Assembly (NCBI GenBank): GCA_032718475.1 | Contig: JAUCBJ010001819.1 | Location: 1 to 37,568 of the forward strand | Origin: Nemertoderma westbladi | Lineage: Eukaryota; Animalia; Xenacoelomorpha | Reading direction: 5' to 3' | DNA: 37,568 bases | Shown: piece after piece, positions 1,117-32,828 of the stretch | Layout: every line of letters begins with the position of its first letter | Position numbering within the stretch: the first letter of the stretch is position 1 | The notes under the pieces: generated by a model | Databases searched by the model: none | Seen by the model: only the letters and a program-made list of their open reading frames with translations | Told to the model about the DNA's origin: nothing | Made by a program: the position numbers and the translations under genes

Positions 1117-4009
1117 TTAGCTATAGCTACATAGATATTCGGTATTACGCATTGCGCAAATTCTAGAACCCTTGGCAATGGTGCAAATGGCACGCAGAAC
1201 GTAGTTATCTAGTTTGGTTATGCGGCAAAAAAGGCCAGCGACCGCCCTATAACGAATATGAATAAAAAGAGGGACATTTAAGGACCCTAAAGCTAATCGA
1301 ATGCTAGTAGTTTCATCATCAACAACTCTGGGTATATTGAAAAACCGTCTAGCACAATTATTATAAGCTACTTTGAGTTTGTTGTGAACAGACTCAGAAT
1401 AGTTTTGTCTGGCCCAAAGAGCATTGCAATATAACGGTGTACAATATGCACGAAATAAAGTAACTTTAACGGGGACAGGGCATGAACCGAATTTGCGAAT
1501 CAAAAAATTACCCCTAGAATAAAGCTTACAAGTTTGATTCCTGATATCGTAGTCGTCATCTAAAGTACTGTGTACAATATGGCCAAGATAATTAAACTTC
1601 TCAACGACTTCAATAGGAGAGCCATTAAGATAAACACTAGGGCGACAAATAATTGTCGACCCCTTAGGATACAAATATAAACACTTACTTTTCTTTTTAT
1701 TGAAAGTTATAGAATTACCTTTTGCGTAGGTAACACATATATCTATTAAGTGCTGTAAACCAAAAATAGAGTTTGAAATTAAACATAAGTCATCAGCGTA
1801 ACCAAGGTGATTAATCCTGGTTCCATCAATAACGCAACCTACATCAGCACTGGACATTTGCTTGCTTAAATCATCGATATAAATGTTGTAGAGCAAAGGC
1901 GACAAAATACCACCTTGCTTAGTACCATTGGTAACAGTAAACTTAGCAGATGTAAAACCACCCCAGATTACATGCATCGACTGAGCTCGATACCAATATA
2001 AAATAATGCGGACTACATATAATGGAAAACCCCGCGATATCAGTTTACTAAATAACTTAAAATGATTTATTTTGTCGAATGCTTTACTGGCATCCAACAT
2101 ACATACGTAAATGGGCGTATTGTTAGAAATATAGTAATTAAGTATCTCCTTAAGTGTAAAGATACATAATTCCGTACCTAATTTTGTCTTAAATCCAAAC
2201 TGATTATCAGTCGTATACATCAAGGACAAGCACCGTGCCAAAATAATATTTTCCAGTAATTTACTAAGAACAGTAGCTATCGAAATACCCCTATAATTAT
2301 CTTTGCTTGTATGGTCCCCGGTTTTATCCTTTATTAAAGGAATAATAACGGATTCCATCATAAGCTGGGGAATATAACCATGGCTGAAAATTAAGTTAAA
2401 AAATAGAGTTAAAATATTCAACAGTGGTACACAGCACCCATGGATAAAATGCTCAGCTTCAAGGCCATCAGGGCCTATTGCCTTACCGCTACACAAACTA
2501 TTAATAGCTTCAAATATTTCATTAACTACTACCTTATTTGTTTTACTAAAAGTAGTTCCCGATAACTTATTAGTTACAAACTCCTTACTACTGTCATCAG
2601 ATACTGAATTAAATAGATCACAAAAATGATCTTTCCACAACCCACAAATCTGTTCGGGACCAACTGCGTCACCTACTTTATTCGGTAGTACAGTTGTTTC
2701 CGAGCAACATTTGTGTACATCAGACCAAAAGTTCTTTATTGGGTTACCTTTATTTGAAGTACTGCCCAATAAAGACTCAGCTAATTTTGTATCACGTATG
2801 TTCTGTTCATCACGCTTACATGCCCTGAGCGCTCGTTTAAAATTGGCTTTCGACCGCAGATAATTATCGTGAATATAACCTTGCCTGGGAGACCCGGCTG
2901 ATCTCCAGGATAAAAACTTATTTCTGGCGTCGTCATGTTTCTCGCGTACAAAGTCATTCCACCCAGGGATGTGGCGTTTAGAAGATGACACAGACGTTTT
3001 ACATTTAATAGTTTCATTAGCACAAGTGTTTAAAGTATTAACTATAAAGTTAAAAATATTATCAATATCGATTCTATGAGAACTATTACTGCAATGTGGA
3101 TCTGTACAGTTTACAAATTCATTATCAACAAAATAGGTATCAAGTTGGCTTTTAACTTTAAAAGCATAATTATTAAGTGACTCAGGAGATGTCTTACACC
3201 AATCTAACTTGGGGCACCTGGGAGATGCGTTACAAGTACAATTAGCTTTAATTGCAGGCGAGGGGGAAATATAAACTGAAAAATCTACAACTAGAGGCAT
3301 GTGGTCTCTAATAGACAGTGAATAGTCCACAGAAACTGAACTAATAATACTACCAGTAGATGGAGGACACACAATATGATCCAGCCAAGATGTGCTGGAG
3401 TGTGCGTCACTTATGTACGTAAAGGTGTCCGAAGGCAGATGTTCAATATCTAATATTATTAACCCCTCGTTATTGCACCATTCGGTAAGGTGAGCATAAA
3501 AAGAGCGCGAAATATCTGGATGAGCATTAAAATCACCAATAATGCAAAAGTTAGTAAAACCAATTGATTCATAAATGGATTTTATCTCACCCAGGCAACT
3601 TGTATACAATGTGTCATTTTCTGCACATTGGTAAGGCATATAAACATTGAGTAATAATAGTTTATGTAAATTACTGAGGTTAACAACTGCACCAATAAAT
3701 CGTGAATCATTAAATTGAATAACGTTAACAGCGTGTGCAATTGTGTTTCTGTACACTACGGCTACTCCACCATAAGGGCGCCCGGATAGTATACCAGAAC
3801 TACTGCAAACAGGAGATACACCAACACCTAGAAAACCAGGGTGTAAATTATTAACAATACCAAGCTCCTGCTTGGTTACACAGTTCTTGCAGGAATAAAA
3901 TATCGGTTCCTGATTCGCACAAATTGAAAATAATTTTCTGCGAAGCCGCATTTTTAATAGAGTTGCAATTGTATGAAGTTAAACTAAGTTTCATATTATT
4001 ATTCGCCAT
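1117..4009 (-). pseudogene. LINE ORF2 (apurinic endonuclease + reverse transcriptase) with one frameshift near 3881
   Basis: N-terminus MANNNMKLSLTSYNCNSI...DILFLQEL (ATG at 4009) lies in a different frame from the 944-aa ORF; motifs GRPYGG, IGDFNAH, WLDHI, DHMPL, NYRGIS, QFGFK, LDASKAFD, QGGILSP, YADD. Confidence 0.92.
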
Positions 4010-4135
4010 TGAAAACACTAGTAAGATGATAAAAAGGAATTAATAGTATAAAAATATATATTTATAAAAGGAAAAGATGTCGGGTTATTAAAAATACACG
4101 ATAATACATGGAATATAGCCCAGTTGCGCAGTTGG

Positions 4136-5352
4136 CTACGTGGACAAACCTATTGGTTGAGTAGATTCCGAAGTGTTGGTCAAGACGACCTGGGTACCTG
4201 ACATAACAGAGTCACCGCTGGGCAGGAGTCCCGAGGAAGACCCAGGGACCTGTGGAGCTACCGGACGCCGATTCTTTGGAGGGAAATAAGAGTTGATTCT
4301 AGCATGTCGAGGCCATGTGGTGGGGTTAAAAAGAGTTTCGCGCTCGTTATCTTTGCACGTTAAGATAAAAGAAGACTGCGTGGCACCTTCCCTATTAACC
4401 AGTTCGACTGAAACGTTTAGATCAACAGTATCTTTTATATATGCTTCGATATCTTTAGGCACAACCTCGATGCCGAGCCCAGTTAAATACAGTTTTCTAA
4501 TAGGCTGCACTGTCCTGAGCGCAGTTGACGAAGATGCGCCTTCAATAGCCTAAACTTCCTCCGTTGCGGTTTTCGGCCGCCGGGGTTAGACTTAGCAACG
4601 TTGTTATTTCCGGCATGTCGTGGATGCTTAGACGCTACGGGTTTCGCCGCCCGATGTTTACCGTCTGCACCTACAACAGCAAAACTATCATCATCGTCAA
4701 TAACGATCATGCTACCAGCAGCGGATGAATTATTCCAGGTAGCATTCGTGGTTTTAGCTTTGTCAGCATAGGAGTGAATCCGTGGTTCCGAAGGAGAAGG
4801 AGTAACGACCGAACCACCTTTCTTGCCTGTACATAACGCAGCTGTTTGAGAAGCAAGAGGGGCCTCCTGTCGCCCGTAGTTTGCCTCGAGAACAGCGACC
4901 CTGTCCTGCAGCATGCTGACGGTTCGACACAGCATAGAGATGTCAGCGCTGCCTAAAGAAAACGGTGGAAGACTCGCTAGGTTGACCGGAATAAATTCAG
5001 GAATACGAGTAGCAGTAGAGTTATCGGAGGCGGAACCTCTGTCACAGAATCCCGGATACTCGAACATATCTAGGATGTCGACGACCAGATTTCGCCGTAA
5101 GGAGTCACCATTCTGGCGAACTTTAGAGAAGCTTTGCTTGGACTTGTTCCTATCCGAAGAAGGGATTAGCCCGAGGAGAACAGTCTTTGCCTCCTTCAAC
5201 AGTGCGTCGTTAAACTTCGGCCAAGATTGAACGATAGCAATTATTGTATCGTGCGTTTGCGCCTCGGCAACGTGAGATGCCCAGATGTAGGCAAGTACGT
5301 CGTTCTTTATATGATTACAGTTGCAGATATCAGGCTCCGCCGCTCGCGCCAT
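4136..5352 (-). pseudogene. LINE ORF1, frameshifted near 4551
   Basis: MARAAEPDICNC...NDVLAYI...PEFIPVNLASLPP, a coiled segment, then an RRM-like C-terminus LYLTGL...SSFILT...TWPRHARINSYF in a second frame; lies directly upstream of ORF2. Confidence 0.75.
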
Positions 5353-6563
5353 AGTGAAGTTGGCATTCACGCGAAGAAGAGAAATATAAATAGTAGGGTA
5401 AGCCCACGTTCTTAATACTGCTGTACTGTGTAAGTTATGCAAAACCGGTACAGCAGTATAGCAGTCGTACTTGGAAAACTCCATGGAAAACTCCATTACT
5501 GTATGTAATGGATTTCTCGTGCTCCTTGGATGATAAGCTCCTAAAACGGCTTTGAATCTCAAAAAGGTTCCAGGGAGTGCTTTACTTCGCTTAGTGTTTT
5601 GGTTTACCGGCTAACACAAAATATTTCCCACTAGAACACGGACCTTCAATGACTTGTTATTTACGGACATCAACAACCTTTTAATATAGTACAAAAACAC
5701 AGTGATTTTCTGTTCTTCCCAAATAATACTGTATATTGCTTCCTTCTGACATATAAAATAATGTACTGTAACACCTTAGAAAAACCCCTGGGATGAGTAA
5801 AAAGTAGAAACCGGGTGAAGGGTGCTTTGGGTCCATTAGGATCCAAAGTATAGCCTCAAAAATAATCCAAAATGCAGAGAAAAATATAGTGTTTTTAGCC
5901 GTTTTGTTATGCTAAAAATACACCGTAAAAATATACAAATAATGGGAAAAGAAAATCTAATAATTCGTGAAAAAAGCCTATAAATACTATAAGCAGGAAA
6001 AAAGTCGTACAACGTCGTAATAAACTTGGTGCTTCACACATTGTTACGGTAGTCACGGTAGTGTAGAACACCAGATAACCTTCTGAGTCCAAACAGGTGT
6101 GGGACCGATTGGATGCAAATGGTTACCTGCAATTGCTCTCAGACCATACAGTTTATCCTGGCGAGTCTGGGATAAACATATAGCCTGCGGACAGTGCACC
6201 AGCACTACCGTGATTGTCAGAGCCGGGCCGATGGAGACGCTGCCACTTTGCCTTTAGAACTAAATAGTCAGTCCCTCCCGACGTAAGTAGCCAGAGGGCA
6301 AAAGTAAGCACACAAGCAAGCGCTCCGGGCTTATTTAGCCAGTGAACTCAAACCAAGGCGGAATCGTCTTACCTTCCTGGTCCGATCACAAAGCCTTTCT
6401 CAGGCCCGACCCAGCAACAAAGACGCCCAACTTTGGAGCAGAGCTGACTTCTAGGCTAAACTTTTGCTGACTTTAGGAGCAGAGCTCATTTCAGGCAGCT
6501 GGGGTTGAAGACTCTAATTTTCTGTCCCAATGTGGCCCTTGTTTGACTTTCTTGTGCAGAGAT

Positions 6564-7083
6564 TGTTAGCTTATCCAATTCCGCTAACACAAACCCATAG
6601 AGTGAGCCATTAAGCAATATTGGGGGCCACGAGGTTGGTTACCCAATCTCGCGTCACCCCAATAAAGTGGGAAGGAGAAACACACAATAGGGGTCAGGGG
6701 CCAAACCCCTAACCGAGAGAGAACACAGGGAGTGAAGGGAAACACTCCAAAGGGTGCCAACAGGGATATTAGCCAATGGGGGGACAGCATCGACTAGGTA
6801 CTGTAACAAGGCCAAACCGTGCAATATATATTACCGGTCGATGCAATCAGTTAGTCAGTTTACTCAGTTAGTTCAGTAGGGTGGAACGGTGACTTCTATC
6901 ACCGTCCGCTACCGCCATCATACTTATCTACCGGTAACCGTGTCATACTATACTATATATATCAACTATATTATACCTTTATACATATTACCGAACATCA
7001 GAACTCTTTTACCTTTCACACACGGCGGGGACGCGTAGATAGAAAACCCAACGGATAAACCGGGATCCGTAGATCCCGTCACA
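6564..7083 (+). repeat. 5' LTR of element 1
   Basis: tgttagctta...cccgtcaca; by eye only 2 substitutions relative to the 3' LTR. Confidence 0.97.
6772..6876 (+). promoter_or_regulatory. Putative LTR core promoter (CCAAT, TATA-like element, several TCAGT initiator-like motifs)
   Basis: agccaat...tatatatta...tcagtt in the same order in all three related LTR types in the window. Confidence 0.5.
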
Positions 7084-7092
7084 GTGATAGAA
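7084..7092 (+). promoter_or_regulatory. Non-tRNA primer-binding-site position (GTGATAGAA), complementary to its own LTR at 6894-6902
   Basis: Directly follows the LTR CA, lacks TGG, and is the reverse complement of TTCTATCAC. Confidence 0.7.
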
Positions 7093-7190
7093 ATCCAGCT
7101 GCCCGAGACTGCGACTGCCAACCACAGTGATAGAACTAGATCCAACCAACTGGCCTGACAGACTGTGGCTGCCAGCCACCAAAGACGAAG

Positions 7191-10100
7191 ATGAGTCGAG
7201 AGAGAGGGACAACACCGCCGCGGACCCCGGACGGCGATCTAACGATCCGCGAGGCCGCGACGAGACGGTATAAACCCACGACGCCGGACCCATCGATAAC
7301 GGGCCATCCGGCGATCCGAGATGAGGGGGGCCGTCTACAGCGAGAGGACGAGTTTGGAGAGGAGAGAGACGAGTCGACACAGGGCGGCGGTCGATATGCC
7401 GATGTCGCCGGCCAGCCACAGGCCGAGGGCGACGGACGGCCCACCGGAACGGCAAAGGTGGGGCCGACGGTACGACGCCGAACCCGGAGGGAGAGAGGAG
7501 ATGTCGACGACGAGGACGTCGGGGTCGTCCGGCTCCGACGAGCCTACGCCGCGACCCGGGAACAACTGAAGGAAGCTAGAGGAGGGGCTGAGATAGACCA
7601 GGTGAAGTTGAGGAGACGACTAGGTGAGTCGAACAGATACTTTGATTACCTAGTGCGTTCTGGGCAGGGAGAACTGGCCGAGGAGAGAGCGAGAGGGGTT
7701 GCCTTCGAACTGTTTGGGCTATGGGAACGTAGGGGTATGGGGCCTGGTGTAGTGTACATAGGGCCATACTTAGTCGATGCCAGGGAAGTTAAGTTAGTGG
7801 GTTGGGCGGGACCGCACGAGGGCGAATCCGAGGTTAGCTCCGAGGATTCGGCCTCGTCGGTCAGCGAGGACCCCGGAAAGCGGGGGAAAGTTAGTAGGAC
7901 GGAGGGGCGGCGGGAGTCCGTCGCAACCGATAAGTCTGCTACATCCTCCGCAAAAGAAAGAAGGGTGCAGGAGATAAATCTGGCAGCGTATGAATTAAAA
8001 ACTAGAGAGATATTAGAGAGAACTAGAGAGAAATTAGAGTGGATAATGGGGAGAAGGAAGGAGCAAGAGAGTGAACGCGAAGTGCGTGAGGCAAGAGAAC
8101 AGAGCGTGCGGTACACGTACAGTACATACAGTAACCGTACGGGCGGGGGGGGGGGGGGGGGGGGGTAGTAGTAGTGCGTTAGGAAATATTGGTATTAATA
8201 GTACCGTAGTAAATAACCCTAATCCCTTCATAATAATATTAATTCAAATATTCAGAATAATCAAAATAATTCAAATAATTCGAATAGCTATTTAAATTTT
8301 GAAAATAATAATAATTCTAACTTAAATAATTTAAATAATAATCCCGTTTCAAATTCTAATAATTTAATTGATTTAACAAATAATATTGGGAATGGTGCTA
8401 TTAATGTGAACGCGTCAGACTTGTATAGCCCGGCAGACGGCAGCCTGGTAGGCCACGTAGTTAGTAGGCAGGAAGTGGCGGGGTTGAGCCAACCCGAGGT
8501 GGGCCTGGTAGGCCACGTAGTAGTAGAGAGAGAGGCGGGGGTGAATAGACCCGGCCGCAGTAGAGACAGTGTGTCGACTAGAGAGGGGTGTAGAGACGAA
8601 GTAAGAGATATTGAAGTTAGATGTGGCGGGTGGGGGGGGGGGGGCTACGGGTGCCCCACCACATGAGATTAGCGGCGAGAGAGGGGGGGCAGAGAATGCC
8701 CCACAAGAGGGGTGTAGAAGTGTAGTAAGAGGTAGTGAAGTTAGAAGTGGCGGGTGGGGGGGGGGCTACGGGCGCCCCACCACAGAAGATTAGTGGCGAG
8801 AGAAAGGGGGTAGAGAGTGTCCGACAAGAGGGACGCAGAAGTGTAGTAAGAGATAGTGAAGTTAGAAGTAGCGGGTGGGGGGGGGGGGGCTACGGGCACC
8901 CCACCGCGAGGGATTAGTAGCGAGAGAGGGGGGGCAGGGAGTGTCCCACAGGCGTCGGCGGATAATGCGCAGGCCGAATTAGGTAAACCGCAACACCCGG
9001 CGACGGAGAGTAATAGGGGGATTGCGAGTATCCCCAGCGGCGTGCGATCGAGCAGAGAGAGACAGGTTGACGTCGCGAGAGGGCGGGCGACGGAACGTCG
9101 AGCCCAGTCAGAAGAGAGAAGATTAGTAGAGTTTAATAGAGAGGTCGAAGATAGGAGAAGATTAGTAGAGTATAATGGAGAGGTCGAAGATAGAAGAAGA
9201 TTAGCAGAGTTTAACCGAGAGGTCGAAGAGAGAAGAAAGGAAGATAATAGAAGAGTCGTTGCTAGGAGCAACCAGAGAGCGAGGACGGATAGCGAGCCGT
9301 CGATAGTAGAGATGGAGCTAGGGAGTCAGTGGGGTCGAACATCGGGAGATTGCCGTCGCCCCGGAGAAACGCACCACACACCAAGAGAGGGGTACAGGAC
9401 GTACCGATACGAAGAAGAGAACAGGAATGGGGATCAAAGAGAAGCTTCCCGACGGGATATAGCTGCCGATCGAGAGTACGGTAGTCGCGGGGAGATTCGA
9501 GATTCGAGAAGAATAAACTTCGATTCGGAAGGGCACATGCAGACTGCAGGACATACTGTAGGCCTTACTGCACATACTATTATAGGCCATGCTAGAGTAG
9601 GCGATAGGGTAGCGCGGACGACGGGATTAAACCCGGAAGTCGCGGAGTACATACCGGTAGGTAGGCAAGAAGTGAATAGGCCTATATCGGTACCGGTACA
9701 GCAGCATGACTATAATTTCCAGGGATACAACATATATCCAGGGGAGGGGGGAATTATTGCAGATAGATGTATGGGCCCCAATATATTAACATCAACCCCA
9801 GTACCAAACATACCGGCCGGGGGGGGGACAGGGTGACATTCCCCCATCACAATATCGACAATATACCCCAATAGGAGCGAGAACATCGAACCCCTTGGAC
9901 GAGAGAAGGTTGTGCGGACAGTCGCTACCACACGCGGCCATACAGGCTGGTAGTAGGGCCACACTGTGGCAGGGACAGAAAGAAAATAACACCAAAAATA
10001 AACATAATCCCAATATACCCAGTAGGCCGAGTGTAGACAATCGAAACACTAAATCGGTACATATAAACCTAGGCGCGATACGTGAAGGACTATACAGGAA

Positions 10101-10380
10101 ACGCTATAATCCAGGATTCGAATGTCAATTACATCGGGACGGAACCCATAAGACCAGGAGTTGTAAGTACTGGCAAGCGTTGCCCAAACGAGATCGTGTA
10201 GCCTACACAGACGCAAATGGACTATGTCATCGATGTGTGGTAAAAGGACACAGATCCGGAGAGTGTTGGAAAGGGAGAGGATGTGAAAGCACTAAACCAG
10301 GGGCAGAGAAGCCCATGAGTAAACATAAAGGAGTCGGGAAAGTAGAAGAGGAGGCGTGTTGCATACACACGCAGGACTAA
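7191..10380 (+). pseudogene. Fragmented gag-like coding region of element 1 (ORFs 7191-8168, 8856-9836, 9895-10380)
   Basis: ATG about 110 nt after the LTR and conserved with element 2; several frame breaks at poly-G runs; C-terminal CQLHRDGTHKTRSC...R...LCHRCVVKGHRSGECWKGRGC matches the BEL/Pao gag knuckle pattern. Confidence 0.7.
8540..8950. repeat. About 123-bp tandem repeat (3 copies) inside the gag-like region
   Basis: gaagttaga.gt.gcgggtgggggggggctacggg..cccca repeated near 8613, 8737 and 8858. Confidence 0.85.
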
Positions 10381-10694
10381 CACAGTGCGAGGGGGCATTA
10401 CATGGGCAGACGCCGTGTATACCGAGGGACAAGCGGGGGTCGTCGAGGCCTTTAATGCCAGCGCACATACAAAGGGGGAGGCCAGCAGAGGTAGTACCGA
10501 AGAGAATGTGGCGAAGAGTTAGAGGACGTATAGGAGGGCAGCGGGAGAGTGCCTACTGGAAGAAGGGGCACCAGAGAGTTTTTATTCGTCCAAAGTTTTG
10601 GACTGAGGGGGGTGGGAATGAGGGCGAGACGCCCTTCCCACGCATAAAATACAAAATAATTATTTAATTAAAAACAATAAAATAATTAAATAAT

Positions 10695-12065
10695 AAAGTA
10701 GGTAGAAGTTAGGTAGTAAGAGAGTTAGTCAGTTAGTTAGTTAGGAGGTACGTAGTACCGAGAGATAGAGTTAGTCAGTTAGTTAGTTAGGAGGTACGTA
10801 GTACCGTTAGAGAGAGAGAGTAAGAGTAAGAGGGTACGTAGTACCGTTAGTAGAGCAAGAGTTAGAGGGTACGTAGTACCGTTAGTAGAGCAAGAGTTAG
10901 AGGGTACGTAGTACCATTAGTAGAGTTAGAAGAGTTAGAGGGTACATAGTACCGTTAGTTAGTGGAGTTAGAGTTAGTGAGAGGGTACGTAGTACCGTTA
11001 GCAGGGAGTGTTAGAGAAGTTAGTTAGAGGGTACGTAGTACCGTTAGTTAGGTTAGTAAGAGGGTACGTAGTACCGTTAGTTAGAAAGAAAGTAGTAGCA
11101 GTAGAGGGTTGTGGGCACCGTAAGCGCCACGTAGAAAGTAGTAAGCAGAGTGGTTGTGGGCACCGCAAGCGCCACGTAGTTAGAGTTAGTAGGGAATGCG
11201 TTGAACTTAGTGGGGCACGGGCGTGATGACGTGTTTGATGTAAGAGCAGGGTATGTTAATTAGGGTGGGTGCTGGGCACAAGAGGTGCCGGGCACAAAAG
11301 AGTTAGTAGAGAGTTAGTAGTAGAGTTAGTAGTAGAGTTAGTAAGAGTTAGTAGAGAGTTAGTAGAGTTAGTAAGAGTTAGTAGTAGTTCACATGATTAA
11401 CGTACCCACTCTGCCGGCATTCAGAGCGTCACGTGTAGGCGAGTAGACGTAAAGGCGAGTAGATGTAAAGGAAGTAAGTTAGAGATAGAGAGGGCACATA
11501 GTGTGCCAGGTAGTAGAGTGGAGTGTTAGAGGTAGTAGAGAGGGCACATAGGGTGCCAGAGAGTAGAGTAGTAGAGAGGGCACATCGGGTGCCAGCTAGT
11601 AGAGTTAGAGTTTTAGAGGTAGTAGAGAGGGCACATAGGGTGCCAGAGAGTAGAGTAGTAGAGAGGGCACATAGGGTGCCAAGTAGTAGAGTTGTTAGAG
11701 GTAGTAGAGAGGGCACATAGGGTGCCAGGTAGTAGAGTTAGAGAGGTAGTTGAGTAGTAGAAGGGCACATAGGGTGCCAGATAGTAGAGTGGTTGTGGGC
11801 ACCGCAAGCGCCACGTAGAAGGAAGTAGACAGTAGAGTGGTTGTGGGCACCGCAAGCGCCACGTAGTTAGAAGAGTGGAGTAGAGTTAGTAGAGCTAGTT
11901 AGCAGAGTTGGTAGACTTAGAGGAGTCAAGTAGAGTTAGTAGAAGTAGAGAGTTAGTAGGAGTTAGTTAGACTTAGTAGAACTAGTTAGAGTCGGAGAGT
12001 TAGTAGAAAGTAAGATAGTTAGATAGTTAGCAAGTAAGTAGTAGATAGTTAGATAGTATGATAGC
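10695..12065 (+). repeat. Purine-rich compound minisatellite region with short hairpin motifs
   Basis: 9x GGTAC(G/A)TAGTACC, 8x GGCAC-N5-GTGCC and 4x GGTTGTGGGCACCG(C/T)AAGCGCCAC, separated by gttagtagag-type linkers. Confidence 0.85.
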
Positions 12066-12427
12066 ACAGGGGTAGCATTAGAGGTCAGGGCCTTAGAGAG
12101 TGGCAGAGATTAGAGAGGAGATAGTGAGAGGAGCTGTTGGCGAGAGGGAAGAGTGCGATTCAGGTGTGGGGAGAGGGTAAGAGCGAGTTGAGTCAGACAG
12201 CGGAGTTAGAGTGGCGAGAGTGTTGGGGAAACAAAAATTGTGTGAGAGAAGCGCACGATCGGCCCGACACGAGACGCCAGAGGGTAGTGACATCATACCC
12301 ATAGGGAGCGGCCTGGAAAGCCGACTCCGAGAAAATAAACCCACCCCACACCCGATAATAGATCGGGATCCAGCGGAATTGTAGCGCACTTTAGTTGGAT
12401 GCTATCTTCTCACCGGGAAGATAGCAT

Positions 12428-12436
12428 GGGGGGGAG
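12428..12436 (+). promoter_or_regulatory. Polypurine tract of element 1
   Basis: gggggggag immediately 5' of the 3' LTR TG. Confidence 0.85.
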
Positions 12437-12956
12437 TGTTAGCTTATCCAATTCCACTAACACAAACCCATAGAGTGAGCCATTAAGCAATATTGGGGGC
12501 CACGAGGTTGGTTACCCAATCTCGTGTCACCCCAATAAAGTGGGAAGGAGAAACACACAATAGGGGTCAGGGGCCAAACCCCTAACCGAGAGAGAACACA
12601 GGGAGTGAAGGGAAACACTCCAAAGGGTGCCAACAGGGATATTAGCCAATGGGGGGACAGCATCGACTAGGTACTGTAACAAGGCCAAACCGTGCAATAT
12701 ATATTACCGGTCGATGCAATCAGTTAGTCAGTTTACTCAGTTAGTTCAGTAGGGTGGAACGGTGACTTCTATCACCGTCCGCTACCGCCATCATACTTAT
12801 CTACCGGTAACCGTGTCATACTATACTATATATATCAACTATATTATACCTTTATACATATTACCGAACATCAGAACTCTTTTACCTTTCACACACGGCG
12901 GGGACGCGTAGATAGAAAACCCAACGGATAAACCGGGATCCGTAGATCCCGTCACA
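12437..12956 (+). repeat. 3' LTR of element 1
   Basis: 520-bp direct repeat of 6564-7083, followed by TSD GAGAT. Confidence 0.97.
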
Positions 12957-13338
12957 GAGATTTTACGTTCAAACCATGTAAAATATGATTACTCATTATG
13001 ATTGACTGACTAATAATTGGTACCTGGATGGAGTCTTGAAGGTGACTAGTCAATTATTCCGTACTGCTATTGGGTGATGGCAGTAGGCTGTATACTGAGG
13101 GCCAGTGATAAGGAAGGAATGTATTGGATGAGTAATGTTAGTACCCTGGATCGATTGGGTTGGGTGGATAAGGCAGGCCGACTAAGGATGTCTGGGTTGG
13201 GATGATGAGTCATACTATTTGGGATATTGGATAATATTCTGAGATGAATATTACGGTGAATATTTCTGAGATGAATATTACGGTGGGATAAGGAAGAAAG
13301 GGAATAATTGTGTAGTAATTATTTCGTTTTTAAAATCA

Positions 13339-13721
13339 TGTAAGCGGATTCAATTCCACTTCATTACCCACCAGAAAATGGGACTAGTGGCATTTTAGCA
13401 ATATGTTGGGGATATGAGATTACCAATATTAATCTTGTATCATAACCAACATTGGGGGGGGGGGGGGGGGGCGACACAAGCCCCAAAGCCACAGAGAAAG
13501 GTGAGAGGTCAAACCACCTCAGAGGGAAGGCAGCTAGTAGAGGCTAGCAGCGGAGGGGAAACACTCCCAGGGAGTGCCAAAGTGACAAGTAGTATATTAG
13601 CCAATAGTGGGGAGGGAAGCACGTGATAGGGAACAGGAAAGCATCCATTGGGTAGAGGGCTAAAGTAGACATATATCATCTTGCATTACTGGTTTACCGG
13701 TCAGTTGTGTTATTCAGTTCA
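13339..13721 (+). mobile_element. Truncated, diverged LTR of the same family (U3 part), interrupted by element 2
   Basis: Starts tgtaagcggattcaattcc (compare tgttagcttatccaattcc and tgtgagcgtattcaattcc); shares gaaacactcc, ttagccaat, TATA-like and tcagtt motifs. Confidence 0.75.
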
Positions 13722-16193
13722 TGTGAGCGTATTCAATTCCGCCACACTAACCCCATAAAGTTGGTGTTAAGCAATATTGGGAACACGAGGTTGATTACCA
13801 ATATCAACCTCGTGTCACCCCAACAAAGTGGACGACAAACCCCAGAGGGCCTCACACAATGGAGGTCAGAGGTTAAGCCACCGGGTAGAAGGAAAGTAAC
13901 AGCAGCGGGGGGGGGGGGGGGGGGGGGGGAAACACCCCCGCAGGGCAGAGGGTGTGAAGTAGGTTACTAGCCAATGGGGGGAAGGCATCGGCTGAGTAAC
14001 AAGGCCACAAGTGCAGTAAAATATATATTATGTTGCATGCCCCACTACCAGTCAGTTTACTCAGTAGTTTACCCAGTACAGTCACGGCAGTACGGTGACA
14101 GTTAAGACCATCACCGCCGTCACCATATTACCGGTTTCATTCAGACATTAGTGCCATCTGCTATTGTATCTTATCTATACCATACTTCTATATCATTAAC
14201 AACATCGGAACAACGTAAACTCCTTTTCCATCACGGTACGGCGGGGACGCGTACACAAACAACACCGGATAAACCGGGATCCTCTCGGATCCCGTCACAG
14301 TCTTAACTCTAGGACCTGCCGGGCTGTAACTATTAAAGATGAGTCAAGAGGAAGAGACGACACCGCCGCGGACCCCGGACTACAACCTAATGATCTGCGA
14401 GGCCACTGCGAGACGGTATCGACCCACGACGCCAGATCCGTCGACTACAGGCGATCCGGCAATCCAAGAGAAGGGGGGCCGTCTACAACGAGAAGGGAGA
14501 GATGAGTCGACGTATGACGGCGGTCGACGTACCGATGTCGCCGGCCAGCCACAGGCCGAGGGCGATGGACGGCCCACCGGAACGGCAATGGTGGAGCCGC
14601 CAGTACGACGCCGGACCCGGAGAGATGGAGGAGATGTCGGCAACGAGGACGTCGGGGTCAGTGACCGGCTCCGACGAGCCTACCTCGCGACCCGGGAGCA
14701 GTTAAGAGAAGCGAAAGGAGGGGCCGAAATAGACCAGGTGAAGTTGAAGAGGCGGCTAGGTGAGTCGAACAGACATTTTGATTTCCTAGTGCGTTTTGGG
14801 CAGGGAGAACTAGCCAATGAGAGAGCGAGAGGGGTGGCCAGCGAACTGTCTGAACTATGGGAATATAGGGGTATGGTGCCTAGTGTATTGTACATAGGGC
14901 CATACTCAGTCGATGCCCGGGGAATAGAATTAGTGGGTTGGAGGGGACCGCACGAGGGCAAATCCGAGGTTAACTCCGAGGATTCGGTTTCGTCGGTCAG
15001 CGAGAACCCCGGAAAGCGGGGGAAAGTTAGTAGGATGGAGGGGCGACGGGAGTCCGTCGCACCGATAAGTCTGCTACATCCTCCGCAAAAGAAAGAAGGG
15101 TGCGGGAGATAAATCTGGCGTATAAGTCAACAATTGCGGCACTAGACCATAAAGAGTTAGAGAGGCGACGGAGTGAGGAAACCGCAATGTTGGAGAGAGA
15201 AAGAGAGTGGGCGAGGGAGTGTAGAGAGAAAGCCGAGGAGTGTAGAGAGAGAGCCGAGGAGTGTAGAGAGCGGGAGATGAGAGTAGAGAGCGAGCCGGCG
15301 AGGCGGTTTGAGATGGTTGCGAGAGGGGCAGAGTTGGCCGAGCAGAGTATACGAGAGAGAGGGATAGAGAGTAAGCGCGTGCGGGATGATTTGCATGCCC
15401 GACTAAGGGGGATTATGCAACATCAAGCCAAACTGAAGCGCCGACTAGAACTGGCGCGGTTGGGACTATCAGAGAGTGAGACCCCACTTACAGGCACCGG
15501 GCGAGGGAAGCAGAACCGGTGTAGCCGTACGGGCGGGGGGGGGGGGGGGGGGGGGGTAGTAATAGTATGTTAGAAGTAGTTAATATTAATAGTACCGTAG
15601 TAGATAACCCTAATCCCTTTATTACAGGAAATATTTTACCTGGTAGTAGTAATTTAAATTTAAATACAAATAATCTAAATAATAAGTTCAATTCAAATGC
15701 GAAGAATAATTCGAATAATAATTTAAATTTAGAAAATAATAATAACTTAAATAATTTAAATAATAACCCCGTTTTAAATTCTAATAATTCTAATATTTTA
15801 ATTGATTTTGGGGATTTAATTGATCTAACAGATAAAAATAATAATCCCGTTTCAAATTCTAATATTTCAATTGATTTGGGGGATTTAATTGATCTAACAG
15901 ATAATATTGGGAATGGTGCTATTAATATGAACGTGTCGGACGTGCATAACCCCAACGGGGGCCTGGCAGGCCACGCAGTTAGTGCGCAGAGAGTGGCAGG
16001 GGCGAGAAACCCCGACGGGGGCCTGGTAGGCCACGTAGTTAGTAGGCAGGAGGCGGCGGGGTTGAGTCAACCCGAGGGGGGCCAGATAGGCCATGCAGTA
16101 GTGGAGAGAGAGGCGGGGGTGAATAGACCCAACCGCAGTAGAGACAGTGTGTCAACTAGAGAGGGGTGTAGAAGTGGAGTAAGAGATAGTGAA
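13722..16193 (+). mobile_element. Element 2: 5' part of a diverged member of the same LTR family (LTR 13722-14299, 578 bp)
   Basis: TGT...cccgtcACA LTR homologous to the element 1 LTR; internal region aligns to 7180-8615; homology stops at 16193. Confidence 0.9.
14339..16193 (+). pseudogene. Frameshifted gag-like ORF of element 2 (R/E-rich coiled coil, Asn-rich tract)
   Basis: MSQEEETTPPRTPD... is homologous to MSRERGTTPPRTPD... at 7191; split over ORFs 14339-15112, 15100-15573 and 15567 onward. Confidence 0.75.
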
Positions 16194-16208
16194 TGTGATA
16201 TACATAAA

Positions 16209-17594
16209 GGCAGTGATTTTTTATGTCAATTTATTTGACTTTTTTTGTCACTTTTTTTACGAATTATGCATAATGACTTTTGTTGTCCATTTAATGACTT
16301 TTATTGTCAATTTTTATGTATGTATTTCTTCAAACTGTCAGACTGCTAATTTCTGGACTGTCAGACAGTTGATTTCACTATGCCTGTGCCAAAACATTCC
16401 ATGATTCCATGATTTATAGACTATGAGGTAGATTTCCATATGCGCCTGTGGTAAAAAGACTCTATATTAAATAGTTTGTGGTTGTTGTCGATAATCGATT
16501 ACCACATGACGTAGCAAAACACTCATTTTATAGCCAAAAACAATTACCAATTGATGGAAAGGAGCAGGTTAAGGCCGAGTTTTCTAACCAAAACAATAAA
16601 CAGTCACTTTACCAAATCAGGAAAAGGAGCAGGTTACAGAGACGAGATTTTCTAACCAAAACAATAAACGATCATTTAACTAATTGAGGGAAAGGATCAG
16701 GTTACAGAGACGGGATTTTCTAACCAAAACAATAAACGATCATTTAACTAATTGAGGGAAAGGAGCAGGTTACAGAGACGGGATTTTCTAACCAAAACAA
16801 TAAACGATAACATTACCAATTGAGAGAAAGGAGCAGGTTACAGAGGCGGGATTTTCTAACCAAAACAATAAACGATAACATTACCAATTGAGGGAAAGGA
16901 GCAGGTTACAGAGGCGGGATTATCTAACCAAAACAATAAACGATCATTTAACTAATTGAGGGAAAGGAGCAGGTTACAGAGACGGGATTTTCTAACCAAA
17001 ACAATAAACGATCATTTAACTAATTGAGGGAAAGGAGCAGGTTACAGAGACGGGATTTTCTAACCAAAACAATAAACGATCATTTAACTAATTGAGGGAA
17101 AGGGGCAGGTTACAGAGGCGGGCCTTCTGTGCTGTTGGAAGTAGTGGAGCCGCTATCCGTAACACTACTCAGACAGTAGTCATGATCCATTATTGATTAT
17201 AAAACTAATACAGTAAGGCCTAAATTATGTGAAAGGTATATCCACATTTTCCACAATCCTGCAATCCAGTTTCGCCTATCAATTATTTAAAATTTATTAG
17301 CACAACCGGTAGGCCTACCATTACCGTATTTAAATGGTAGGCTACACAGTAGGCCTATAGCAGTACCAGTGCCGGTACCGGTACTAAAATACAGAAATAC
17401 CTGCTTTATACCTACATCTGTACATACAATACAGCAAAATAGTGCTATATATATACTAACCGGTACTGATAGCCTGAGAGAACAGCAGTAGAGAAACCGG
17501 TAGCATGGAACCTAACATTAGACCTTTGGATGACATAAAAAATCAAAAAAAATTGACAAAAAAATGATAAAAATGGACAATAAAAATTATTGCG
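16209..17594. mobile_element. Non-autonomous DNA transposon, Mutator (MULE)-like
   Basis: 9-bp direct repeat ATACATAAA at 16200-16208 and 17595-17603; imperfect TIRs ggcagtgattttttatgtcaattt and (reverse complement) cgcaataatttttattgtccattt; subterminal TGAC-T/A tract-GTCA motifs; no transposase. Confidence 0.65.
16553..17121. repeat. 68-bp minisatellite, about 8 copies
   Basis: Unit taattgagggaaaggagcaggttacagagacgggattttctaaccaaaacaataaacgatcatttaac. Confidence 0.92.
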
Positions 17595-17801
17595 ATACAT
17601 AAATTACATTATTACCGTATTGGCGGGAATTTCAAATAGCGTACTACCTGTATTATTATACCGGTGTAGTACAAGTTGGGCCCTAGGCTAATAGGGAACT
17701 TACTATGATATTTTAAACTATAAACTATCAAATAATAATTAATATTAAGTATTTTAATATGTTATTATATTTTGGGATCTGATCGGGAGCCAGATATCAC
17801 A

Positions 17802-17811
17802 TGGCGCTGCG
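17802..17811 (+). promoter_or_regulatory. Canonical tRNA primer-binding site of the Gypsy element (tRNA-Ser-like)
   Basis: TGGCGCTGCG directly after the LTR CA; resembles the complement of eukaryotic tRNA-Ser 3' ends. Confidence 0.7.
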
Positions 17812-17894
17812 TTATGTACCTATGTAATAAGCCTACCTAATATTCATTAATGATGGATGTTTGATCTCTACCGGTAAACGCCACAAAATTGTCA

Positions 17895-20800
17895 ATGAAG
17901 GACGATATTACGACAGCCCGGCGAAGCCGTGGCCAGTACGCCTTACAAGCCAAAAGGGATATTGATAAACTGGAAACCTACGTTAGTTGTTTAGTTGACA
18001 AAGACACTGATGATCCAGATTATGAAATTGACTTGGCGGAAACGGAGGATGAGTTTACGTTGGCCAAAGGATCCATAGAGAAATTCCTGAATTCAGTCAA
18101 TGAAAGTCACCGGATTGAGGGACTCGATGAAGATACTTCCGAACAAGAACCTAGATATATTGAATATTTAGGTTTGGAAGATGATTTGGGACGTCTGCGC
18201 CGTCACATTAGACGCTGTAGAATACAATTTAACACAAAAACTCCAGTTCATGTAAATCTACAGGCTGCTAGAACTACAACACCTGAACGCAGTGATAGAC
18301 ATCCAAAGATAGATTCTTCTCTGAAACCTGAGATATGCCTCGAAACCGATACAACATTTATTGGATTCAAAAGCTGGAAAAAAGCGTTTATTCGATATTC
18401 CACAGCTAATAACATGAATCGCCTCCCGTTAGATGCATACCGGGGCCACTTGGAGAAATGTCTCTCAGAGAAAATGAAACACGAACTGACACAAATCCTT
18501 GGGGCAGATGATTCAGTCCCTATAAATGACTGTTTGGATCGACTTACTAAACACTTTGAGCAGAAATATTCTGTACTGACACGGAGAGTAAATTTCCAAA
18601 AATGTCGCCCAGCTAAAGGGGATCGACTTAGCGATTACCTGGTACGACTTAAAGCAATTGGGGCAGAAGCAGAACTCGACGGTTTATCTTATGAGGATCA
18701 ACTCGCAACTATGATTGTTGTATTCGTGATTGATGAGGAGTTACAAAATAAACTTATGGAGTTGGATAGTCCTACTTTAGATGATATTTGGGTAAAATGT
18801 TTAAAGTGGGAGGCCAATAAATCCAACCAAGCTGTCCTTCATGGTTCTGAATCATGTTCTATTAATAAGACGTCAACCTACAAGCAAGGGAAAATTAATA
18901 CACAGCATGGTGGGTTAATGAATAAAAATCGTAGTAAATCTCAAGACCGCTGGCGACAGCAATACCGCACAGCCAAAGATGGTAACTGTTTTTGGTGTGG
19001 TGGAAATCCACATAGAAAAGACAATTGCCCTGCTAAAGATATAACCTGTAATAATTGTAACAAAAAAGGTCATTATAAATCAAGGTGTGTCGCAGTCAAA
19101 AAGGTTGGAAAATCTGCAAATGGGCAATATACAGCTAAATCAAATACTATACAGGTATATAGTAGATTTATTGCAGTCAAAGTATCAGCAACTCATAGTG
19201 GTAAATCGACACCACTAGCAAGAGTTCGAATTTCACCAGCCAATGGTCATGGTATACCTTTTGAAAATGATATATTACCAGATACAGGTGCATCTGAAGC
19301 CATTGTCAGTTCTAGAATGCTTGAAAATTTTGACTTTCAAATTAACACCAATAATAAGGTTTCAATTATCGCTGCAAATGGTTCCTCTATGGTTTGTGAG
19401 GGTTCTGTTTACCTCAACATTGAATGGTTGCACCATCAGGCAAATGTCACGGCATATGTAACCCCAGATGTTGATAATATTCTACTAGCATGGCACAATC
19501 TTATTGATCTAGGCATTATTCCATCTGCCTTTCCGTATTCACTAGAAGATGCGGCGAAGTATGGTGTTGCCATTAATAAAGTAGAATCTAACCAGGAAGA
19601 ACCAGTTGAAAAGTCAGTTAAATTCGTGGCCAGCACAAATACAGCAGTGGATGAAGTTGAAGAATTTAAACATATCATTTGGAAGAATATTCTGATGTCT
19701 TCAACAGTGAAATTCAATTAAAGTCTATGAAAGGTCCACCAATGAAAATATATTTGAAACCACTGCTTCCAGGAACAAAGCCAATGCACTGCAATGTTGC
19801 AAGGAATATTCCTTTTGCTTACAGAGAAAAAGCAAAGTTCGAATTGGACAAAATGGAAGCTATGGGGATTATAGAGGATGTCAAAGATGGTCCATCTTAT
19901 TGGGTATCTCCTTTTCTAGTTGTTGGTAAACCACATCAACCAGGTGAGATAAGACTGGTGGTTGACTATAAAGGTCTCAATGAACTTGTCCAGCGACCAG
20001 TCCACCCTTTCCCAACACCACAAGATATTGCCTCTTCTGTCCCAGCTACATCGAAATGGTTTGCTACTCTAGACGCCACAAAAGGTTACTGGCAGATTCC
20101 TTCGGACAATGACAGTAAACCATTCACAACTTTCTTAACTCCATGGGGCCGGAAGAGATATGCCCGAGCTCCAATGGGTTTGTCAAGTTCTCTGGAGATG
20201 AATATTGTGCACGAGGTGATGCAGCTCTAGATGGCATTGCATCAAAACTGAAAATTGTGGATGATATACTTGTCTATGGTGATACATTTGATAATGTTAA
20301 AGTCACTATAAGAGAAATAATGGATAGATGTCAAAAGCATCAAATTACCTTATCAAAAAAGAAATTCATAATTGCTCAGGAAGTTCGTTTTGCTGGTTTT
20401 ATTATTAGTAGCAAAGGTACTAAACCAGATCCAGAAAAAATTGCTTCAATCCGTGACTTCCCTACTCCTAGCACAATCACTGACCTAAGAAGTTTCTTTG
20501 GGTTAGTCAACCAACTCTCACAATTTTCCCCTGGAGTTGCCCAGAAGTCAGCACCATTACGTGGACTTTTATCTCCGAAGAATGCCTATCAGTGGTTGGA
20601 TGAACACACTGAAGCCTTTGAAGCAACTAAATTGTCATTAACAACTACACCAGTTCTAGCACATTATGATCCGAAATTGGCAACGTTCTTATTAACTGAT
20701 GCTTCCAGAACCGGAATTGGTTATGCCCTGTTACAAGAACACAATGATGGAAGTAAACGGTTAGTGCGTTGTGGATCACACTACTTATCAGATGCCGAGA

Positions 20801-22092
20801 CAAGATATGCTGTATGTGAAATAGAACTCCTTGCTATTCAGTGGGCAATATATTGTTGCAAACTATACCTTATTGGTACAGCATTTGTCGTCCACACTGA
20901 TCATAGACCGCTTATTGGTATATGCAATGGTACTAATCTTGATGCTATACAAAATCCACGTCTTCAAAGATTACTTGAAAAATTATCGGGTTATGTGTTT
21001 AAACTAGAGTGGGTGAAAGGAAAAACTCATAATATTGCTGATGCTCTTAGCCGCTCGCCAATATCAGATCCCGATCCAATTGACAAAGTTGTTGATAAAA
21101 TATCCATTCAAGAGATTATTTGTCAACATCTTCAATCAAATGATATTGGCATAGATAAAGATAATTCACTTGGAATTATTAGAGCAGCTGCAAAAGATGA
21201 TGATGATTATCAGATCATATACAATGCAGTGAAGGACAAAGTTGATGTTGTGAAACTTTCCATCAACCACCCAGGTCGGTGCTATAAAAAGGACTGGAAT
21301 CGCTTATCTGTAGATGATGGTCTGATCATGGTTGATGCTACAAGGATTGTGGTACCAGCCAGTCAACGACGTAATATATTGAAGATTCTTCACCTATCTC
21401 ACCAGGGAATAACAATAACAAAGTCTCGTGCTCGAACTTTGTTTTGCTGGCCTGGAATGGGAAATGACATAAAACAAGTCATAGAAGACTGTGAGATATG
21501 TCAAACCATGCGTCCAAGTCAGACTCAGGAACCAATGAAACCTGATTCATCTGAAACAACAGCAAGGCCATTCGAATCAGCTAGTACCGACATGTTTGAG
21601 TATGCAGCAAAACACTTTTTAGTTTATGTTGACAGATATTCCGGATGGCCATGTGTAGCTTCATTCGGAAGATACCCAACTAGCAAGAATGTGATCGATA
21701 CTCTACGAACTTTATTTGCTGATTGGGGTATTCCCAACCGTCTTAGAAGTGATGGAGGACCCCAATTCAGTTCAGGTGAATTTGGAAAGTTCTGCACAGA
21801 AAATGGAGTAGAACATGAAACTTCATCAGCAGGATATCCTCAGTCCAACGGTCATGCTGAGGCTGGCGTTAAAGCAATGAAGACATTAATTAAAAAACAT
21901 TGGAAAAATGGGTGACTTGATAAAGTATCCTTTGAACCCGCTCTATTAGAATGGAGAAACACACCAAGAGAAGATGGGTTGTCCCCTGCACAATGGCTGT
22001 TTGGCAGGCTTCAACGACCCAATCTTCCAGCACACCAGTCTGCATATAATTTGATACACCCGATGGAGATAGATGAAACGTATAAAGCTTAA
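17895..22092 (+). pseudogene. Gypsy gag-pol polyprotein with frameshifts near 19680 and 20190 and a premature TGA at 21913
   Basis: Two CCHC knuckles (CFWCGGNPHRKDNC...CNNCNKKGHYKSRC), protease DTGA, RT LDATKGYWQI and IVDDIL, RNaseH TDAS, integrase HLSHQG...CEIC and D,D,E core. Confidence 0.93.
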
Positions 22093-22440
22093 GTGTGCAC
22101 CTAATAATGTTACAAGTGATTCGTGCAATTTGATTAATTGGTTTCCAGACCCACGCGCTGTTTCATATAGTGATTTGTGCAAAGTACAACTATTTGGAAG
22201 TCCCTGGTTTCTCTAAGGTTGAATTAGACACAATTTTAAATTTTATATGTACCGATTAAGTATCATCCAGTGTATACTATTTCACGAATCATTAGGATAT
22301 TATGTTTTTACTATCTCATTTATATTTATAGACTATAACAACTTAATATTTTGTGCTAATGCTCTAACATTTACCGGTTTTATGTATACTGTGCTATACG
22401 CTTAGTTATATAACTATATGCACGAAATTAAATTAAATTA

Positions 22441-24130
22441 AATTGAGAAAACTCAGTTTCACCATCTGGTGAGAGTACCTGCGCTTCTGTGTCACAATAT
22501 AACAATCCAATGCCAGCAACAATTACTTCTGGTATTCCATAAGCTCTTAGGATTTCAAGCATTTTACCTCTATGGATGGAGTCGAATGCCTTCTTGAAGT
22601 CCACAAAAGTCATGACTGCGGTGAGATTCTTTGACTTAATTCTTTCAATCAGTCTCCGTAGTGCAAGTATCTGAGCTATTGTTGATCTACTTGGTCGAAA
22701 TCCGTTTTGGCTCTTACGCAGTAGTTTCTCTATGTGAGGTCTAATCTTATATAGAATCATTTTATTGTATATTTTGGCAGCTACCACAAGCAGACAGATC
22801 CCACGATAGTTTGTTGGTATGTCGAGGTCTCCTTTCTTGGGGAGAGGCTTTAGTTGACCTTTAGTCCAAATTAGTGGTGGCTTTTCCCCTTTTAACATGC
22901 GGTTGCAAACATTCAATAATGGTCTATTTAGCACTCCGGTTTTCCATACCTCCGCTTGGATTTCATCTAATCCACTCGCTTTATTATTGGACATGCTTTT
23001 AATGCTTCTTTGGAGTTCGGCAGGTGTGAAGTCCCCTGTTTCTATAGGTAGTGTCTTGTCATATATTTTCCTTGTAGGGCTGACCTTGATGTTTGGTGGC
23101 TGCCCAAGCAAGTTGCTGAAGTGATTTTTCCACTTCCCAACACGTTCTTCAGGACTATCGGCTTTGAGGCGCCCCTTTGCACAACTTTTCCGACCAGATA
23201 CCTCATTTACAGTTTGCCAGGTAAGTCTTGATTGTTGCTGTATGTGAGCAGTTGTAATTGCTTCGGTTTTATCCTGTATGTACTTTTCCTGGCTGATGTT
23301 GTAGGCCAATTTAAGATCGTCCTTAGCTTTCTCAACCTTGTTAATGTTTTCGGTTGTTGGTTGTTCGGTTTTAACTTTGTAGGCTATCTTAAGATCTTCT
23401 CTCTTACAAGTAACCTCAGAGTTTTGCCATGGCACATACTGTTTTCGTTTAGGTTTCTGGGGGATATGCCTCTTAGCTGATTCCTTGTGGGCTGTTATTA
23501 TATTCTGGTATATTGAATAGGTGGATTGGTCTTTATCCATTGACTGAAGTGCTTCAAAGCGGTTTTGAACTTCTACTGTATAAGCATCCTTTACAGCATT
23601 GTCAGTTCTGAGTTTCTCCCAGTCATAGTTGATTTGCTTGCTTGTCCTGGGTTTGCTGGCTCTCAAACTGAGTCTGATCTCTGCGGTCACAATTCTGTGG
23701 TCCGAACCAATTAGGTTGAACAAGCTGTATGCCTCGCAGTTGATCATGCTATTTCTCCACTTTTTGTTTATAAGGATGTAATCCAGTTGTGCTTTGGTTC
23801 CATTAGGGTATTGAAAGGTCCATAGCTTCCCCTTACTCTTTTCGAATGTGTTGTTTGTTGGTATCGATTCACATTCTTCCATTAGGTCTAAAAGTAAGTA
23901 CCCATTTCTGTTAGAACTGGTGTTATAGGTGTAACCCTTGATGTCTTCTGGGCCAATTTGCGCATTCAGGTCACCAGCAATGACTTTAAACATTGTGTTT
24001 CGGGATGTCCTTAATAAGTCCAGTCAGTTCTTCATAAAACTTGACTGCTTGTTCTGGCTCTGATGCATTGGTTGGACTGTAGCAACATATAACTGTTGTC
24101 TTGGGATTCCCATCAAATGTTGCGATCATT
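22441..24130 (-). pseudogene. Internal fragment of an RTE-type LINE ORF (endonuclease C-half to RT N-half)
   Basis: CYSPTN (upstream frame), GDLNAQIG, QLDYILI, SDHRIV, LPKKGDL, NYRGI, QNGFR, FVDFKKAFDSI; broken at both ends. Confidence 0.9.
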
Positions 24131-32265: not shown

Positions 32266-32828
32266 CGGGTATTCAAAGTAATATCAGAGAAAGAGATAAT
32301 TGGTAGGTAGACAGAGGGGTCCACCGTGACTTTGGGTCATCACGCATTTTTATTTGCTTAAACTTTAGTCGGACCTTAGAGTAATCAAAATCCGTCGGGT
32401 GCCACTTCGGCACCTTTGGGGAACTTTTTATAAAGGAACCTAAGTTTCCATAGCAACCGGCATACAAGGTTTTATTTTGAGATATCTGCGACCTTGCACC
32501 TATTGCCACAGCTCTTGTTAATTATTCTGAATAAGATTTCTAGACGATTAGTTCCCATAGCAACATTATTAATCATAAATTTTGGCCTTTGGGATGTTTA
32601 TTAAGATGTGCCAACTATTAAACTTTAGATTATTTATGTAACTATTTTATAAAAATTGTACATGTACATGAATTGTACATGTACCCAATGTGACCGGTAC
32701 TACTGTACTATGGTACAGCTGTAGGCCGAAATACTGCAAGCTGTCGCAAACTATCTGACTGTACCGATCCGGTTTAGCCTTACATAACTATAGACCTTTT
32801 CTGGTGAATTACACAAACTGTGATAATA

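Follow-up and report, generated by a model that had tools for sequence, protein, structure and literature searches.

Self-complementary primer-binding sites predict Tf1-like self-priming in a non-autonomous, BEL/Pao-derived retrotransposon family of Nemertoderma westbladi

How does a long terminal repeat (LTR) retrotransposon begin minus-strand synthesis when no transfer RNA (tRNA) primer site follows its 5′ LTR? The question is raised by two related elements, E1 and E2, on a contig of the xenacoelomorph Nemertoderma westbladi (JAUCBJ010001819.1, assembly GCA_032718475.1), the whole 37,568 nt of which were analysed and are referred to here as the window. In both elements the primer-binding site (PBS) forms an exact complement of nine nucleotides within the element's own LTR. 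The reading we favour, with a probability of a little under 0.8, is Tf1-like self-priming, likely by a longer and internally cut primer, in a family that is BEL/Pao-derived and non-autonomous. All coordinates are those of the window, and the features of E1 and E2 lie on its plus strand.

The 5′ LTR of E1 (6564–7083; 520 bp, TGT...ACA) is followed directly by a PBS at 7084–7092, which is the exact reverse complement of a candidate self-primer at 6894–6902. In E2, whose 5′ LTR spans 13722–14299 (578 bp, likewise TGT...ACA), the corresponding PBS lies at 14300–14308 and the candidate self-primer at 14100–14108. A preliminary description of the stretch had reported these four 9-mers, and each was recovered at its place. 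It had also put both candidate primers behind a conserved octamer at a similar distance from the LTR end, and this holds: ACGGTGAC (6886–6893 in E1) occurs only at 6886, 12759 and 14092, each copy immediately 5′ of a 9-mer, and the 9-mers start 190 (E1) and 200 (E2) nt before the LTR ends at 7083 and 14299. The pairing register is set by this octamer at one side and by the LTR end at the other. The base directly after the terminal CA opens each PBS (offset 0), and in both elements the pairing ends exactly there, which is the geometry of a primer, as had been claimed. No TGG, the start of a tRNA site, is present within 20 nt past either LTR. Each PBS matches its own LTR over exactly 9 nt and that of the other element over at most 5 nt. 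As a control, a Gypsy element in the window (17760–21915) has a TGG site and a match of at most 4 nt to the 520 nt upstream of it. The leader of E1 is imperfectly duplicated in tandem, and the duplication holds a second copy of the PBS at 7127–7135.

Such a match could be due to chance, or be a by-product of sequence duplication. The chance of a 9-mer complement within one LTR had been estimated at about 2e-3, and shuffling yields the same figure, as the complement occurs in dinucleotide-shuffled LTRs at a rate of 0.00195 (E1) and 0.00235 (E2; 20,000 shuffles each). Empirically, 13 of 5344 and 6 of 1882 internal 9-mers, or about 0.2–0.3%, have a complement in the LTR, and the chance per site is 3–5e-6. 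The further argument was that two matches together are far less likely still. E1 and E2 share ancestry (78% identity over aligned LTR columns) and are not independent cases, so the informative part is the table of pair changes rather than two chance values: between E1 and E2, five of the nine primer:PBS pairs are altered on both sides, four are the same, and none is altered on one side only. The background of internal matches and the shared ancestry speak for a chance origin. It would have to account, however, for two matches that have offset 0 and an anchored place in the LTR in common, for the five two-sided changes, and for the recurrence of the pattern in unrelated loci, and we find it hardly credible.

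This recurrence was seen in metagenome contigs, which were scanned with the reverse transcriptase (RT) motif of the protein P0006. At least 119 loci were listed, 113 of them with a tblastn match to P0006 at E ≤1e-5; Pfam identifies Peptidase_A17, DUF1759, DUF5641 and RVT_1 in L056, L020 and L031, and DUF1759, DUF1758 and RVT_1 in L011. The leader is readable in 28 loci among the matches listed, and the following counts refer to these. A TGG primer site is found in none of the 28, and 20 carry a self-match of 9–14 nt, which at most one of 60 random 30-mers per locus reaches. Fourteen of the self-matches arise only if the LTR is spliced at a GT-AG junction (L001, L002, L003, L008, L015, L020, L021, L028, L032, L040, L042, L056, L071 and L073), with a gap of 2–4 nt between LTR end and PBS in several of these loci. 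The remaining six are direct; in four of these an AG acceptor overlaps the match, and the contig is not long enough for a donor to be visible. The ten loci with matches at offset 0 fall, together with L052, into one RT clade (FastTree support 0.998) and share a CxxH first knuckle; among them are seven distinct 9-mers, and for each the LTR of the same locus supplies the match. The tree comprises 30 of 32 chosen loci, L017 and L062 being too short for inclusion, and is rooted on the RT of the window's Gypsy element. L031 is a complete element, with two LTR ends and a 5-bp duplication, that is intron-less at the site, and its direct match at offset 0 is 11 nt long; in L010, its closest RT neighbour in the tree, an acceptor is present at that place. 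In neither E1 nor E2 does the removal of a GT-AG intron downstream of the TATA box produce a match of at least 10 nt. Priming of the E1/E2 family from its own 5′ RNA, as first proposed in the preliminary description, stands as a prediction, for which the element-specific complementarity, the five two-sided changes and the same signature in RT-bearing BEL/Pao loci all argue.

The link of E1 and E2 to BEL/Pao comes from a coding remnant. The degenerate gag-like region of E1 (7191–10380) is broken into several open reading frame (ORF) pieces, is marked by tandem repeats and by long runs of G, and contains at 10123–10323 a nucleocapsid of the BEL/Pao Cys-His type (CxxHx4Hx4C, a 20-residue spacer, Cx2Cx4Hx4C and a degenerate third knuckle). 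A triple Cys-His box has been described as the hallmark of Pao/BEL (PMC554778). A HMMER search of 1.84 billion proteins with this nucleocapsid gave five hits at E ≤0.001, three of which carry BEL/Pao-type Cys-His boxes. One of these, P0002, is a DUF1759 + DUF1758 protein and matches at 36% over 67 residues; the first two knuckles and the spacer align with BEL/Pao proteins, and the third knuckle is degenerate. The other two hits, P0001 and P0003, were rejected as relatives, as they are unrelated repeat proteins, and an E value near 1e-4 in that search is therefore weak alone. A profile of 22 nucleocapsids from RT-bearing BEL/Pao loci, run against 309 six-frame segments, retrieves the window ORF at E 4e-11, with the next best segment at 0.38 and the window's Gypsy knuckles at 6.2. 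On the three credible hits and this profile, the proposed BEL/Pao link holds for the nucleocapsid domain. The window nucleocapsid scores 29.6 bits with a CxxH profile and 25.2 with a CxxC profile, a gap too small to assign it to a clade. Beyond this domain, no Pfam family was found in seven ORF pieces from E1 and E2, and neither Pfam nor tblastn nor a polyprotein profile of 11 sequences detected remains of capsid (DUF1759), protease or RT in either element. Protein searches for longer proteins matching the nucleocapsid ORF, the E2 N-terminal ORF or residues 205–310 of P0002 returned nothing, and an Atlas search gave zinc-knuckle clusters only, all under 0.9. Pol is encoded by neither E1 nor E2, and both RT and integrase are absent. 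With no capsid domain and no pol, E1 and E2 are classed as BEL/Pao-derived, non-autonomous elements and are not full BEL/Pao members.

Public reads of the organism were consulted as contigs only, and five DNA runs of one organism, from three studies, contain the stretch. In run X1, 902 contigs fall on 481 nt and carry many variants, so that the family is large and varied, depth here being no measure of copy number. E1 was mobile recently without a tRNA site, since its LTRs differ at 2 of 520 positions and its target duplication is intact. Three contigs, representing two distinct variants, span the primer, and all of their listed substitutions fall elsewhere; the places listed for them are inner ones and include neither 6890 nor 7088, and hence provide no test of A6898G.

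The 9-mers had also been described as lying downstream of a TATA/initiator-like region, and this arrangement is conserved. In E1 a TATA-like box (6823–6833) and an initiator-like TCAGT block (6854–6868) lie 70–80 nt and about 30–50 nt upstream, respectively, and both are kept in E2; their roles as promoter motifs are presumed. From these positions the E1 transcript is predicted to start near 6857–6875 and that of E2 at about 14056–14081, and the 9-mer is therefore predicted to be transcribed, yet not to form the first bases of the RNA. In the predicted folds of both elements, the primer is closely followed by an R:U5 helix (6903–6916 with 7024–7033 in E1; 14114–14120 with 14238–14244 in E2), and the PBS is closely preceded by a U5 terminal hairpin (7061–7078 in E1; 14275–14294, with another loop, in E2; pairing probability 0.96–0.99). 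Taken by itself, the primer:PBS helix is worth some −10 kcal/mol, and neither of these structures conflicts with it. In E2, a predicted outer helix of 13 bp joins the sequence 5′ of the primer (14077–14090) to the leader (14316–14328), and only 7–8 of 500 shuffled leaders reach the same (P ~0.015). In its E1 counterpart of 6 bp (6879–6884 with 7099–7104), one change is two-sided and two are of the wobble kind.

Two features of E1 may be recorded beside these folds. At position 6890, G in place of T is the majority letter in the contigs, and by eye this change would move the local hairpin of E1 so that the whole primer stands in the loop, as in E2 (14093–14116). Within the U5 of E1, seven nucleotides at 7038–7044 repeat part of the PBS and could act as a decoy by pairing with the primer; E2 lacks them, and in this region indels are frequent among the contigs.

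Beyond the primer:PBS pairing itself, we infer each step of the following scheme. Transcription would start some 20–45 nt upstream of the 9-mer, and the R:U5 helix and U5 hairpin would fold the LTR such that the 9-mer is brought to the PBS, probably with chaperoning. The RT/RNase H of a helper would then cut after 6902 in E1 or after 14108 in E2, as RNase H does in Tf1, and thereby release a 3′ end whose pairing partner is the base just after the terminal CA. The cut 5′ piece, longer than the 11 nt of Tf1, may be retained by extra pairing with the leader. RT would copy about 180–190 nt of U5-R, transfer to the 3′ R and complete synthesis as usual from the polypurine tract, and an autonomous BEL/Pao element at another genomic site would supply the enzymes and capsid in trans.

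Several observations weigh against this reading, in regard to the fold, the variants, the comparison set and the protein link alike. The primer:PBS helix lies outside the minimum-energy fold, with a probability of 0.001–0.075 and a cost of 1.4–6.3 kcal/mol over eight trial start sites, and local hairpins compete with it; chaperoning or co-transcriptional folding would therefore be needed. The extra pairing in E1 is no better than that of shuffled leaders (P 0.31–0.36). A PBS variant, T7088C, makes up 47, 50, 53 and 70% of the depth at this position in runs X1–X4, and the matching A6898G is not among the 40 of 64 variants listed. The single long T7088C contig does not align to the E1 LTR upstream of 7050 and may represent a subfamily with another primer. 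Primer and PBS are linked in only two family members, E1 and E2, and no listed contig piece links them.

The behaviour of the helix, which alternates with local hairpins, and the T7088C variant would also fit a different account, namely that the pairing, as a conserved structure, serves regulation or packaging, and that the true primer is a host RNA, such as an internal tRNA fragment, bound to the same 9 nt. Half-tRNA priming is described for Copia lineages (PMC6317226). Against a host primer, the two distinct 9-mers would each need a fragment of their own and a mirrored LTR copy, and the pairing ends exactly at the terminal CA in both elements. No tRNA gene was found in the region and no Rfam family in 6400–16300, a search that extends to whole genes and not to internal fragments of host tRNAs. 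The four 9-mers are also absent from seven supplements of PMC13524379, a result that bears on tRNA 3′ ends only. Moreover, in related elements the complement arises only across a splice junction, which fits a primer formed at the RNA level. A host primer is, in our judgement, unlikely.

Among the metagenome loci, two LTR copies fix the LTR ends in 5 of the 28, and in the other 23 the ends were called by eye. The set also includes three near-duplicate pairs. Eight of the 28 show no self-match, four with less than 160 nt of LTR and four with full LTR regions lacking a 9-nt match; L078, a miss under the counting rules, reaches 11 nt when a GC donor is allowed. The window LTRs share no DNA similarity with these loci (best E 0.018), and the letters of the PBS differ. 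The LTR-end motif of E1 and E2 is absent from the metagenome and viral contigs, and neither P0006 nor the RT motif has a match in the viral contigs.

The BEL/Pao link of E1 and E2 rests on about 65 residues of nucleocapsid, and their LTR 3′ end, CGTCACA, fits the end motifs of the Gypsy elements rGmr1 (CGTNACA) and Sushi (CNTNACA) as tabulated in PMC3601003 (Table 3). Self-priming might thus be real and be served by a Ty3/gypsy helper of the Tf1/sushi or Gmr1-like kind, with the nucleocapsid captured or convergent and the mechanism then a known one; the lack of RT in either element and of a DUF1759 capsid would agree with this. The 5′ end, TGT(T/G)AGC, fits the rGmr1 and Sushi motifs incompletely, however, and the nucleocapsid is BEL/Pao in its spacing and its best hits. 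Self-complementary PBSs are also common in RT-bearing BEL/Pao loci, and the Gypsy element of the window has a TGG site. We consider such a helper very unlikely.

Taken more widely, self-priming in E1 and E2 may belong to a marine-type branch of BEL/Pao that dropped the tRNA primer and primes with its own, internally cut RNA, by a mostly splice-built and in some cases intron-less route (L031 and the E1/E2 family). Primer and PBS, both encoded by the element, would then drift together and give each subfamily a private primer code. We rate this wider proposal slightly better than an even bet. If it is true, self-priming has an origin independent of Tf1/sushi, the textbook view of Belpaoviridae as tRNA-primed is overturned, and BEL/Pao becomes the third LTR superfamily with self-priming, beside Gypsy and Copia. 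Annotation based on the PBS would miss or misplace such elements. The high-copy, recently active and pol-less E1/E2 family would present the priming signal as a cis element that outlives the loss of all enzymes. Exact predictions follow from the proposal, in the form of a start site, a cut site and a primer joined to strong-stop DNA.

As for the remaining anatomy, E1 is complete (6564–12956), with both LTRs and a 5-bp target site duplication (unstranded; 6559–6563 at the left and 12957–12961 at the right). Its 3′ LTR (12437–12956), to which the 5′ LTR is unlike at two positions, contains a copy of the primer at 12767–12775 and is abutted by a polypurine tract at 12428–12436. Purine-rich, non-coding tandem repeats at 10700–12100, in the 3′ half of E1, stand where pol would be. 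The sense strand of 7084–12436 is strongly purine-biased (G 1829, A 1644, T 987, C 893), and G runs of 9–21 lie close to ORF breaks, some of which may be assembly errors. The gag-like 5′ part of E2 (14339–16193) extends over about 1.9 kb, is 87.5% identical to E1 across its first 0.8 kb and is broken off near 16193; no E2 3′ LTR is present within the window. E2 is cut short by an AT-rich insert at 16214–17591 that has weak inverted ends and contains a 68-bp tandem array. Upstream of E2 is the U3 part of an older, third LTR of the family (13339–13721, plus strand), 74% identical to the E2 LTR and scoring 134 against 34 for the best of 200 shuffles. It stops at its initiator-like block, precisely where E2 begins, and its R-U5 is absent from the window; this one junction suggests that E2 inserted at the start site of a relative. 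Elsewhere in the window, the Ty3/gypsy element, unrelated to E1 and E2, has a frameshifted pol (17865–21915), a TGG site after 17801 and no 3′ LTR that could be seen. Three LINE-type elements with endonuclease and RT lie at 1117–5610 and 22428–24023 on the minus strand and at 32808–37331 on the plus strand, the last with an open ORF2 of 1097 residues plus ORF1. A 56-bp satellite of about 90 copies, with periodic 64-bp units, occupies 26038–31171.

Self-priming has been shown for Tf1 and is implied for the Tf1/sushi group (PMC4600332; bioRxiv 2022.12.06.519325; PMC5341516). In Tf1, the RNA pairs through its first 11 bases, and RNase H cleaves it between bases 11 and 12 (PMC7175516; PMC4600332), the primer being the very 5′ end of the RNA within a three-duplex "pretzel" (bioRxiv 2022.12.06.519325). 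Tf1, Tf2, Tj1 and Tosmo of this group resemble E1 and E2 in having no tRNA site and a PBS, directly past the terminal CA, whose pairing partner is the R region of the same element. In E1 and E2, by contrast, the match is 9 nt long, is predicted to lie 20–45 nt inside the RNA, and is accompanied by a leader predicted to pair upstream of the primer. With regard to the pretzel, the U5 hairpin is conserved, and the predicted folds contain no leader:U5 duplex common to E1 and E2. Chromovirus proteins were not found here, and the sole recognisable domain, the Gag remnant, is of BEL/Pao type. For Gypsy Tcn1 and the plant Copia elements TAR, Houba and Osr-1, self-priming was predicted from PBS–LTR complementarity alone (PMC6317226), the same class of evidence as for E1 and E2, in other superfamilies and other hosts; the screen, as that source describes it, required at least 10 nt, and the 9-nt sites of E1 and E2 would therefore be missed by it.

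Belpaoviridae, according to the International Committee on Taxonomy of Viruses, are primed by host tRNA at an 18-nt PBS for tRNA-Arg or tRNA-Gly, and their replication is poorly understood (PMC8742986). A term search of the accessible text of PMC3118150 and PMC554778 gave no mention of PBS or tRNA. No publication on BEL/Pao self-priming was found in a search that lay outside subscription journals, Repbase and GyDB and so does not establish its absence from print. E1 and E2 share with this family the polypurine tract and, in its first two knuckles and spacer, the Cys-His nucleocapsid pattern (PMC8742986; PMC554778, as far as these sources describe them), with LTRs of both elements within 0.2–1.2 kb and, in E1, a target site duplication among the general traits; the 18-nt tRNA-Arg or tRNA-Gly PBS, the capsid and pol are all absent from them. 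The metagenome BEL/Pao loci (L001–L078) are like E1 and E2 in their lack of TGG and their self-complementary PBS, with the same intron-less layout in L031, and differ in a mostly splice-built complement, in the letters of the PBS and in having no LTR DNA similarity. Without the pol and capsid of full BEL/Pao members, E1 and E2 are thus BEL/Pao-derived elements that, on the mechanism predicted here, work like Tf1 and yet are not members of Tf1/sushi.

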